Source of the DNA: Escherichia coli
GTDB lineage: Bacteria; Pseudomonadota; Gammaproteobacteria; Enterobacterales; Enterobacteriaceae
Assembly: GCF_003334335.1 (NCBI RefSeq)
Contig: NZ_QOWQ01000136.1
Length of the DNA stretch: 952 nucleotides
Direction: 5' to 3' (one strand)
Part shown: piece by piece, positions 1-952 of the stretch
How the letters are laid out: each line of letters opens with the position of its first letter
How positions within the stretch are numbered: position 1 is the stretch's first letter
The notes under the pieces: model-generated
Database searches by the model: none
What the model saw: only the letters and a program-made list of their open reading frames with translations
What the model was told of the DNA's origin: nothing
Translations under genes and position numbers: made by a program

Positions 1-102
1 GTTGAGGTCATGAAAATTGCTGGAGATGCCCAGCTTTCTACCCCATGCACTGACAGCATCATAAACAGCATTGCAACGGGCATTCGCATCAAAGGAGAGT
101 GA
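1..102 (+). CDS. 3' end of an upstream ORF (5' truncated by the window edge); hypothetical protein, C-terminal 33 aa ...VEVMKIAGDAQLSTPCTDSIINSIATGIRIKGE*
   Basis: Frame 1 is open from base 1 to the TGA at 100..102. The stop lies 1 nt before the ATG at 104, a stop/start arrangement typical of translationally coupled phage genes. No similarity recognised from memory; a 33-codon open stretch alone is weak evidence. Confidence 0.4.
   Translation, partial: VEVMKIAGDAQLSTPCTDSIINSIATGIRIKGE
93..97 (+). promoter_or_regulatory. Shine-Dalgarno ribosome-binding site (AGGAG) for the ATG at 104
   Basis: AGGAG at 93..97 followed by a 6-nt spacer and ATG at 104..106; near-consensus SD at optimal spacing. 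It sits inside the last codons of the upstream ORF. Confidence 0.65.
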
Positions 103-103
103 G

Positions 104-295
104 ATGAACGGACAAATCTCAATTGTTCGACCGGGAGCATGTGACGATCGCGAGATACGAATGATTATTCGTCTGGCGATGGGGAGAACAATAACAGCTC
201 TCATTACTCCAGAAAATCTCGCATTAGCTTTAACCGGAAAGTCAGAACTGCCAGTGGAGCTAAAACTGCGAAATGTTGAGATTAAGGTGAAATAG
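104..295 (+). CDS. Small hypothetical protein, 63 aa (MNGQISIVRPGACDDREIRMIIRLAMGRTITALITPENLALALTGKSELPVELKLRNVEIKVK); function unknown
   Basis: ATG at 104 with an AGGAG SD 6 nt upstream; open to TAG at 293..295. The ORF track starts this frame at TTG 71, the first start-like codon after the in-frame TAA at 62..64, but that start has no SD and would overlap the upstream ORF by about 30 nt. Same strand and 2-nt gap to the downstream gene. No family recognised from memory. Confidence 0.65.
   Translation: MNGQISIVRPGACDDREIRMIIRLAMGRTITALITPENLALALTGKSELPVELKLRNVEIKVK
284..289 (+). promoter_or_regulatory. Shine-Dalgarno ribosome-binding site (AAGGTG) for the ATG at 298
   Basis: AAGGTG at 284..289 followed by an 8-nt spacer and ATG at 298..300; it lies within the last codons of the small ORF, consistent with translational coupling. 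Confidence 0.6.
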
Positions 296-297
296 CT

Positions 298-952
298 ATG
301 ACCACTATTACCAAAGAACGTATTGAATTGTTCATTAAAAATCCGCTTGAAAACGGGCTTACTCGTGGCGAACAAATGGAACTGGCACGAATTGCACTGG
401 CATCACTGGAACGCGAACAGATTCGCCACGAGCATGCCAAATGGTCTGACTCCACATTTGGCTGCGTTGGCCCCATTGGTCCACTGAAACACCTCTCAAA
501 AGAGGCACTGGAAGCCGCAGCCGAACCAGACGATCTTAGCGAGTGGGCTGATATGCAGTTTCTGTTGTGGGATGCACAGCGCCGTGCTGGCATCAGCGAT
601 GCTGAAATTACCGCTGCTATGGAAGATAAATTGAAGATCAACATGGAGCGCCAGTGGCCTGAGCCAAAAGATGGTGAGCCTCGCTTGCACATTAAAGAAC
701 CCGGCAACTCTCCGGTAATTCCGGATGGTTTATCCACGGTATGCGCTGAGGCTTATCAGGTTGTAGGAGTTATGGCAGATGCGCTTGGTGTATTCGGTGA
801 TGCAGCAGTACAGAAAGTTCTGGATAACCTGTCACAGCAAAAACTTGTTCACAGAGATGTGCTGCCGTTCTCGCTTCCGGTAACTCCGGATGGTTGGATA
901 AGCTGTAGTGAGCGAATGCCGGATGATGGTCAGCACGTAATTATTTTATGTG
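298..952 (+). CDS. MazG-like all-alpha nucleotide pyrophosphohydrolase (DUF550-like, putative dATP/dGTP pyrophosphohydrolase) fused to a C-terminal DUF551-like module; 3' partial, 218 codons visible, no stop in window
   Basis: Frame 1 is open from ATG 298 to the window end, checked codon by codon with no stop. Translation begins MTTITKERIELFIKNPLENGLTRGEQMELARIALASLEREQIRHEHAKWSDSTFGCVGPIGPLKHLSKEALEAAAEPDDLSEWADMQFLLWDAQRRAGISDAEITAAMEDKLKINMERQWPEPKDGEPRLHIKEPGNSPVIPDG... It contains E-A-L-E (aa 69-72, nt 502..513) and E-W-A-D (aa 82-85, nt 541..552), matching the ExxE...ExxD divalent-metal-binding signature of the MazG/HisE-type NTP pyrophosphatase superfamily. The C-terminal ...PDGWISCSERMPDDGQHVIILC resembles, from memory, the start of DUF551 modules found in enterobacterial prophage proteins. 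Domain assignment is from recollection of family patterns, not a database search. Confidence 0.85.
   Translation, partial: MTTITKERIELFIKNPLENGLTRGEQMELARIALASLEREQIRHEHAKWSDSTFGCVGPIGPLKHLSKEALEAAAEPDDLSEWADMQFLLWDAQRRAGISDAEITAAMEDKLKINMERQWPEPKDGEPRLHIKEPGNSPVIPDGLSTVCAEAYQVVGVMADALGVFGDAAVQKVLDNLSQQKLVHRDVLPFSLPVTPDGWISCSERMPDDGQHVIILC
711..730 (+). repeat. Direct repeat copy 1 (tccggtaattccggatggtt); encodes S-P-V-I-P-D-G-L in the CDS frame
   Basis: Read directly from the sequence: 19 of 20 nt identical to 876..895, in the same reading frame, 165 nt apart start to start. It contains an imperfect palindrome TCCGG-N5-CCGGA. Confidence 0.85.
876..895 (+). repeat. Direct repeat copy 2 (tccggtaactccggatggtt); encodes L-P-V-T-P-D-G-W in the CDS frame
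   Basis: Read directly from the sequence: 19 of 20 nt identical to 711..730 (single T/C difference at repeat position 9). It is immediately followed by the DUF551-like WISCSERMPDDG segment. Confidence 0.85.

Follow-up and report, generated by a model that had tools for sequence, protein, structure and literature searches.

A 952-nt stretch of Escherichia coli DNA (contig NZ_QOWQ01000136.1 of assembly GCF_003334335.1, one strand; hereafter the window) carries the greater part of a mosaic prophage gene in which two 20-nt direct repeats bracket a small protein module, here called the cassette. Our analysis indicates that the two 20-mers are most probably copies of a conserved in-frame linker at which homologous recombination exchanges domain modules. 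The domain order in the gene is variable N-terminus, DUF550, linker, cassette, linker and DUF551; the DUF550 part and what precedes the first linker are referred to as the head, and the DUF551 part as the tail. An earlier note on this DNA, drawn up from the letters alone, had interpreted the segment between the repeats as a cassette inserted or exchanged by recombination, and the whole as a footprint of module shuffling in a mosaic phage gene. Both ideas have held up: alleles that agree in their DUF550 head and DUF551 tail may either contain or lack exactly 165 nt, and the linker is reused in many other genes. Nearly all data considered here come from Enterobacteria.

The window contains a single family of direct repeats, TCCGGTAATTCCGGATGGTT at 711-730 and TCCGGTAACTCCGGATGGTT at 876-895. 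The two copies are identical at 19 of 20 positions, lie 165 nt (55 codons) apart from start to start, and the match stops at once on both sides when it is extended. A direct repeat of at least 19/20 was found in none of 1000 dinucleotide-preserving shuffles of the window, and about 2.5e-5 such pairs are expected analytically, in agreement with the view of the earlier note that the similarity goes beyond chance. Both copies are in the frame of the open reading frame (ORF) that starts at 298, each starting at the third base of a codon, and they do encode the PV(I/T)PDG peptide that had been read from them: (S)PVIPDG in copy 1 and (L)PVTPDG in copy 2. The peptide given for the intervening stretch is likewise identical to the translation. 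The proposed position at domain junctions is confirmed by Pfam, which places PF04447 (DUF550) on residues 42-137 (i-Evalue 2.2e-41, model positions 1-96 of 97), ending one residue before copy 1, and PF04448 (DUF551) on residues 199-261 (i-Evalue 6.3e-17, model positions 1-67 of 68), beginning inside copy 2. With near full-length matches to both models, the predicted gene product is a fusion of PF04447 and PF04448. An internal tandem or partial duplication, which had been put forward as another possible origin of the cassette, is ruled out: the similarity is confined to 20 nt, ends abruptly on both sides, and the window has no second direct repeat.

The 20-mer is by no means private to this gene. 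A scan of IMG/VR for the exact sequence returned at least 120 stretches (loci L086 and higher were selected by this exact match), and the flanks of 205 occurrences, among the matches listed, were clustered at 60% nucleotide identity. In this set 36 unrelated clusters adjoin the 20-mer on its left side and 41 clusters on its right. Across the 36 left modules, conservation climbs from background to 69-88% over the 8 nt GGCAACTC immediately upstream, and the first 4 nt downstream (GGAT) are conserved at 70-78% across the 41 right clusters. The linker core therefore comprises about 30 nt, GGCAACTC-TCCGGTAAYTCCGGATGGTT-GG, and encodes GNSPV(I/T)PDGW. The PV(I/T)PDG codons are CCG GTA A(C/T)T CCG GAT GGT in 123 of 144 unique 90-nt contexts, again among the matches listed, and the shared DNA reads CCGGTAA(C/T)TCCGGATGGT, including GTA and ACT, which are minor codons in E. 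coli. Since the same codons recur, minor ones included, the nucleotide identity of the linker is apparently identity by descent and not convergence on a peptide. In one alignment (A1), sequences are identical through ...GGATGGTT(GG) and diverge directly after it.

The modules on either side of the linker are combined in many ways. An identical cassette (100% over 51 amino acids) is attached through ...(G/T)NSPV(I/T)PD-G to about 10 different N-terminal modules. On its other side PVTPDG-W connects it to DUF551 or to one of at least four WVMVPK... modules, which makes at least five types of right module. Among the matches listed, 50 distinct DUF551 tails occur in 82 cassette-bearing clusters, and all of them start with WISCS(E/D)(R/L)(M/I/T)P or close variants. 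Most E. coli partial matches to genes with DUF551 alone begin at position 43 of the query, at GGCAAC (among the matches listed). A stretch of about 56 nt that begins with GGCAAC and extends to the end of WISCSERMP is found at 5161 places in 2538 of 5426 complete E. coli genomes, mostly inside genes annotated only as DUF551; as there are up to eight copies per genome, recombination partners are plentiful. The DUF550 head itself was found in 512 E. coli genomes and the cassette in 311. Linker homology thus extends over a core of about 30 nt, and over about 56 nt with WISCSERMP in many partners. As judged from these alignments, the linker would qualify as a boundary sequence: nucleotides are conserved between unrelated modules, the edge of similarity falls at the linker, and left and right modules are swapped around it.

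Evidence for exchange also comes from alleles that differ in the presence of the cassette. In many E. coli matches to the window, the matched stretch is shorter than the query by exactly 165 nt. In E. coli UTME-3 (locus L002), the DNA reads ...KEPGNSPVTPDGWISCSERMP..., with a single linker copy through which DUF550 is directly joined to DUF551 (...HIKEPGNSPVTPDGWISCSERMPE... in the protein), and over 298-923 this locus differs from the window by one single-nucleotide polymorphism (SNP; position 622) and by the clean absence of the 165 nt. A synthetic precise-deletion allele, made of a window-type head and its DDGQHV... tail, was matched in one piece in 17 complete E. coli genomes (346 nt, 98.3-98.8% identity), and the filled form of that head with the same tail was present in five. 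The locus L205 is also an empty allele, the DUF551 tail of which is identical in protein sequence to that of phage Stx1a_EH2115 (L003).

To these can be added 82 classifiable DUF550 loci (80 from IMG/VR and L001-L003), a biased sample insofar as the IMG/VR set (L006-L085) consists of the 80 loci closest to the query head. In 43 of the 82 the linker leads straight into DUF551, in 32 the cassette lies between two linkers, and in six a single linker leads into unrelated WVMVPK... modules. In L006 and L009 the cassette is followed by a linker and by WVMVPKQVTPEIS..., and L075 has a different insert of about 110 amino acids between HIKE and GNSPVTPDGW. The two kinds of homologue that the earlier note had predicted therefore exist, namely those in which a single PV(I/T)PDG joins the MazG-like domain to WIS... 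without the 145 nt (L002, L205 and others) and those with another cassette (L075 and the linker joined to WVMVPK... modules). Homologues thus do not all share both repeats and the segment, and the segment is not part of a flanking domain either, as shown by its stand-alone relatives and by the two flanking Pfam models, which are complete without it. Among the empty alleles the single copy is mostly of the T form (PVTPDGW), with the I form (PVIPDGW) in L071 and L072. When heads are grouped by SNP haplotype, the cassette states are intermixed and one haplotype is common to both. The best 120 matches listed in a full-length protein search were all cassette-bearing; the empty alleles come from the IMG/VR loci and from BLAST against E. 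coli. An assembly artefact as the source of the cassette was rejected, the cassette being present in 311 complete genomes.

Filled alleles are also informative about the direction of change. Of 312 E. coli records, 310 have a cassette at least 99% identical to that of the window, whereas the head reaches this level in 180 of 513 and lies between 95 and 99% in 328. In 34 loci that contain the two together, the cassette has a nucleotide diversity (pi) of 0.0016 and the DUF550 head (313 nt) one of 0.0145. Had the cassette been ancestral, its divergence should have kept pace with that of its flanks; that it is about ninefold less diverse, and present on unrelated heads, suggests that it has spread recently by recombination. 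Some of the empty alleles may nevertheless be secondary deletions. Base composition is of little help here, as the difference between the cassette (GC 0.476; 0.39 at third codon positions) and the head (0.504 and 0.48) is too small to inform.

These observations are best combined into a simple scheme. The linker is an element common to many multi-domain genes that lambdoid and P22-like prophages of E. coli and Salmonella carry in their early-left operons. As it always lies in the same reading frame between domains, a crossover inside it could join any left module to any right module, and by virtue of this fixed frame the exchange would leave the protein intact. Recombination could be carried out by phage enzymes of the Red/Erf/RecT type or by host RecA, between co-resident or co-infecting phages, with the linker and the adjacent conserved bases as the pairing segment. 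The cassette would have reached the window gene recently through such an exchange and would not be ancestral there. The exchange would most likely have been with another linker-bearing gene that already carried the cassette, and not an event between the two internal copies. The minimal length for efficient pairing is 23-27 bp for Red-beta and 31-34 bp for RecA, and phage Rad52-like recombinases can use short or diverged homology (PMC3945230). The 30-56 nt shared with partner genes reach these minima and the internal 20 nt do not, which makes exchange with another gene the most likely route. Deletion between the two repeats of the window gene is plausible as well.

Several points weigh against this scheme. 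The mechanism is pieced together entirely from comparative patterns. The two copies in the window gene share perfect runs of 8 and 11 nt only, below the pairing minima just cited, so that exchange between them would be inefficient and the argument needs the 30-56 nt of homology offered by other partners. In the IMG/VR sample, a pair of alleles identical except for the indel was sought and none was found; between the most similar filled and empty alleles, 26 of 669 nt differ. The codon identity of the linker could be due in part to recency and to sampling, given that loci L086 and higher were selected by the 20-mer and L006-L085 by closeness to the head. Finally, the AlphaFold2 (AF2) model of the protein is of moderate quality (mean predicted local distance difference test score, pLDDT, of 59.5), with the DUF550 part poorly predicted.

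Other explanations of the pattern have to be weighed against exchange at the linker. The most serious is that the cassette-bearing form is ancestral and that empty alleles arise repeatedly by slippage or recombination between the repeats, with no exchange involved. Deletion between short, close direct repeats can occur independently of RecA, empty alleles retain exactly one repeat copy, and the existence of both T and I single-copy forms fits crossovers on either side of the mismatch. Deletion alone is however hard to reconcile with a cassette that is about ninefold less diverse than its own head and that remains at or above 99% identity in nearly all records while the heads typically show 95-99%. 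It is also beyond the reach of deletion to place an identical cassette on some 10 unrelated left modules, or to account for a linker at thousands of junctions that never had a cassette, and we consider this explanation rather unlikely. A lower probability still is given to convergence at the protein level, in which PV(I/T)PDG would be favoured as a flexible linker, modules being joined illegitimately and then selected, irrespective of DNA identity. Such a view would be in line with the prevailing opinion that most phage mosaic junctions have no conserved boundary sequences (PMC3029335), and this proline-rich peptide does lie in stretches of low confidence (pLDDT <50), as expected of a linker. 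Selection on the peptide does not explain, however, why six codons including GTA and ACT are kept in the great majority of contexts, why the flanking GGCAACTC and GG are conserved too, or why similarity between unrelated genes begins and ends exactly at the linker.

The palindrome TCCGG-N5-CCGGA pointed out in the earlier note raises another possibility, that the repeat is kept because it contains a functional DNA or RNA site, such as a protein-binding site or a regulatory hairpin. The inverted repeat is indeed present in both copies, where it forms the same stem of 5 bp with a 5-nt loop (-6.8 kcal/mol), and the nucleotide conservation of the linker is unusually strict. The functional part of the suggestion found no statistical support: the fold has z-scores of -1.5 to -2.5, with 7-18 of 200 shuffles folding at least equally well, and a scan of the window against Rfam at E<=1 gave no family except a chance microRNA match. 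The stem moreover follows directly from the two CCG-G codon junctions and is located inside coding sequence without other regulatory context, which makes a functional palindrome very improbable. We give the least credit to the idea of a 165-nt mobile unit, either an insertion that duplicated 20 bp of its target or a mini-intein or other self-splicing element, which would seem almost out of the question. Its appeal is formal, in that empty sites have one 20-mer and filled sites have two around the insert. The cassette, though, encodes no transposase and has no terminal inverted repeats in the repeat search of the window. Some of its relatives lack a second linker, being located at the C-terminus of a protein, encoded by a gene of their own or placed upstream of DUF550, and the same linker flanks many other modules. 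Inteins are much larger than 48-55 amino acids, and a unit of this size thus falls far below the intein range.

Besides its linkers, the cassette deserves attention in its own right. The 145-nt segment codes for an autonomous domain of about 48 amino acids, predicted to form two helices and independent of the flanking domains; its peptide is LSTVCAEAYQVVG...LDNLS...H.DVLPFSLP. An earlier word-index protein search with the 48 amino acids of the cassette had returned five fragments only. When 1.84 billion representative proteins were searched exhaustively with phmmer, a 51-amino-acid cassette query revealed relatives in 481 clusters at E<=1e-3 and in 91 at E<=1e-10. The unit conserved among them is L..(I/V)CAE(A/S)YQVVG.LA...F......K.LDNLS...L(V/I)H.DVLP(F/W), and it is found in N-terminal, middle or C-terminal position in proteins of 61 to several hundred residues; in one relative (P0201) it precedes a DUF550 domain. 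Little beyond this unit, placed after a short coiled-coil-like RI.EL segment, is found in 27 small proteins with lengths of 61-105 amino acids. Their alignment shows no variation at C, E, Y, D, N, H, L and P positions and conservation of 90% or more at Q, V, G, F and others. The cassette residues C149, E151, Y153, Q154, D176, N177, H185 and P190 (about 742-867 in the window) are invariant or nearly invariant in diverged relatives. The set of Cys, Glu, Asp and His in a predicted 48-amino-acid helical hairpin may form a metal or ligand site.

Some of these relatives are encoded by stand-alone genes for 61-76 amino acids, present in a Salmonella element (L206, 5001-5186), in a similar metagenomic element (L004, 3589-3780) and in a phage contig of about 100 kb (L207, 5001-5231). 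A stand-alone member of 61 amino acids from Salmonella is EAB4417366.1. The genes of L004 and L206 each come at the end of a short operon that is oriented divergently from a gene for an Aca2/YdiL-type regulator. The stand-alone gene of L207 is surrounded by small early-type ORFs, and the same contig encodes RtcB and an RNase T-like protein.

Pfam detected nothing on residues 145-192 of the 262-residue protein, and none of the 27 stand-alone proteins matches a Pfam family. The cassette and its stand-alone relatives had no match in NCBIfam or PADLOC, nor any below E=0.28 among PDB sequences. The only family match was to phrog_28884, which has no assigned function; the cassette spans positions 123-171 of the 228 in this profile. 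AF2 run on the single sequence of 262 residues was useless (mean pLDDT 37) and was repeated with a mixed alignment. In the resulting model, helices are predicted at residues 145-162 and 169-179, with block means of pLDDT of 56-77 over residues 141-180, and the DUF551 domain is beta-rich and confident (84-91). The stretches 108-141 and 185-197, which contain both linkers, have pLDDT <50. Together with a predicted template modelling score (pTM) of 0.28, the low confidence of the linkers fits independent domains on flexible linkers.

Short conserved boundary sequences between the modules of lambdoid phages belong to the modular theory of Susskind and Botstein and to the work of Clark et al. (2001) on HK620, both as they are cited in PMC3029335. 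The window locus is a very clear case of this kind of mosaicism, already known in phages, in which module exchange goes with a conserved boundary sequence. As in the lambdoid examples, a stretch conserved at the nucleotide level lies exactly where the similarity of unrelated segments starts or ends, one left segment can be followed by various right segments and one right segment preceded by various left ones, and even the region is the same, hkaE-hkaG of HK620 being a match to the window from the same early-left region. In contrast to those examples, the joint described here is intragenic, in a fixed frame and codes for an interdomain linker, so that domains are exchanged and not genes. It also occurs twice in one gene, bracketing a module.

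The operon and the protein families are likewise those of the mosaic Ea22 and DUF551 proteins of the exo-xis region. The ea22 genes of Stx phages are mosaic, and DUF551 has been called a 'portable domain' that is also fused to dATP/dGTP pyrophosphohydrolase (PMC10834534). That paper treats mosaicism in terms of domain blocks, and the terms 'linker' and 'modular' do not appear in it. Relaxed homologous recombination by Rad52-like phage recombinases has been described as a source of mosaicism (PMC3945230, PMC2327257), and our scheme assumes the same enzymatic mechanism, by which phages and resident prophages exchange DNA where their homology is short or diverged. The studies of Rad52-like enzymes measured recombination over several hundred bp of diverged homology, whereas the joint here offers 30-56 nt and the internal repeat 20 nt. 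Our literature search, the scope of which lay outside Clark et al. (2001), yielded no description of the in-frame joint, of the 48-amino-acid cassette or of the presence/absence polymorphism, and none of the papers searched contains the linker peptide strings.

These observations bear on the debate about whether mosaic junctions originate by homologous exchange at boundary sequences or by random illegitimate joining followed by selection (PMC3029335). Illegitimate joining has been favoured because boundary sequences were not found at most junctions (PMC3029335). The linker offers an unusually clean and abundant case of the homologous type, with 30 nt and fixed codons at thousands of places in about half of the complete E. 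coli genomes, and one and the same gene is found in nature both filled and empty. The question of junction origin thereby becomes directly testable. Our analysis also defines an unannotated family of small phage domains that is a candidate for domain databases. A bolder hypothesis, which we put forward as a long shot, is that the 30-nt linker is a maintained in-frame joint that reassorts dozens of small domains, its codons being kept for continued exchange. If this were true, early-left operons would amount to a combinatorial domain library, including the 48-amino-acid C/E/Y/Q...D/N...H domain and a second joint, QPAPVVP. Lineages that retain the joint would go on swapping modules and would in effect possess a built-in domain-shuffling system.

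This second type of linker, (A)QPAPVVP(D/E), is likewise recurrent and proline-rich and connects modules within one gene pool with the first. It is present in L075 after HIKE, in P0178-P0186, in P0193 and in P0201, and the set includes cassette relatives besides P0201. The gene at 2261-3022 of L001 carries QPSPVVPEG.

The window as a whole matches the early-left (ea or exo-xis) region of lambdoid and P22-like E. coli prophages, and also phages Stx1a_EH2115, ev017 and phiv142-3. No complete E. coli genome or phage record searched contained the whole window in one piece; the best matches cover 81-923, 298-952, or 1-920 split in two pieces. The window is therefore itself a recombinant mosaic of common segments. 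In E. coli G1/2, the gene order is ead/Ea22-like, small hypothetical, mosaic gene, DUF4222, excisionase and integrase. The features of the window are listed in Table 1. The first of them is the end of a neighbouring gene that is mosaic as well and belongs to the same early-left (exo-xis / ea) prophage operon. The full-length form of the linker-bearing gene encodes 262 amino acids in phage Stx1a_EH2115 (L003, 3001-3789).

Table 1. Features of the 952-nt window, in window coordinates.
Feature	Position	Strand	Evidence
ead/Ea22-like family gene, 3' end (stop TGA 100-102)	1-102	+	RefSeq annotation of the matching E. coli locus L001, 2261-3022; ORF list
Small hypothetical gene, 63 amino acids, between the Ea22-like and mosaic genes	104-295	+	L001 coding sequence 3024-3215; ORF ending at 295
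Mosaic gene, first 655 nt, runs off the window	298-952	+	Translation; full-length ORFs; Pfam
Variable N-terminal segment, unrelated in other alleles up to conserved IALASLERE	298-396	+	L079, L205, P0015, P0016
dATP/dGTP pyrophosphohydrolase domain (PF04447, formerly DUF550; MazG-like), residues 42-137	421-708	+	Pfam
Linker copy 1, GGCAACTC and 20-mer (711-730), encodes G-N-S-P-V-I-P-D-G; left boundary	703-730	+	Repeat
Cassette, autonomous domain of about 48-50 amino acids, residues 145-194 (731-875 in the earlier note)	730-879	+	Relatives; AF2
Linker copy 2, 20-mer (876-895) and GG, encodes (L)P-V-T-P-D-G-W; right boundary	876-897	+	Repeat
DUF551 domain start (PF04448, from residue 199)	892-952	+	Pfam

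A second mosaic boundary is apparent near IALASLERE (298-420), where several unrelated N-terminal segments of 30-40 amino acids precede the same DUF550 core. It is bracketed by an inverted repeat (356-372 and 422-438) with arms of 17 nt that are 88% complementary and 49 nt apart. At the other end of the gene, the WISCSERMP block (895-921) opens DUF551 and a hypervariable core follows from about 922. Both ends of DUF551 are conserved around this core, with WISCSERMP at the start and THWMPLPEPP(Q/R)... at the end (L003, 3598-3789); they may serve as further exchange joints for the core. In L011 the frame runs from WISCSERMP directly into the C-terminal part of a lambda-type integrase, and in L084 into a short hydrophobic tail. 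Both are apparent deletion fusions with breakpoints directly after the conserved block.

The mosaic structure of these genes also explains their inconsistent automatic annotation, with coding sequences that are split, partial or differently named. In L001 and L002, PGAP reports a partial pseudogene plus an overlapping in-frame coding sequence that starts from a CTG codon (3218-3343 and 3317-4051 in L001), a split that looks like an annotation artefact of mosaicism.

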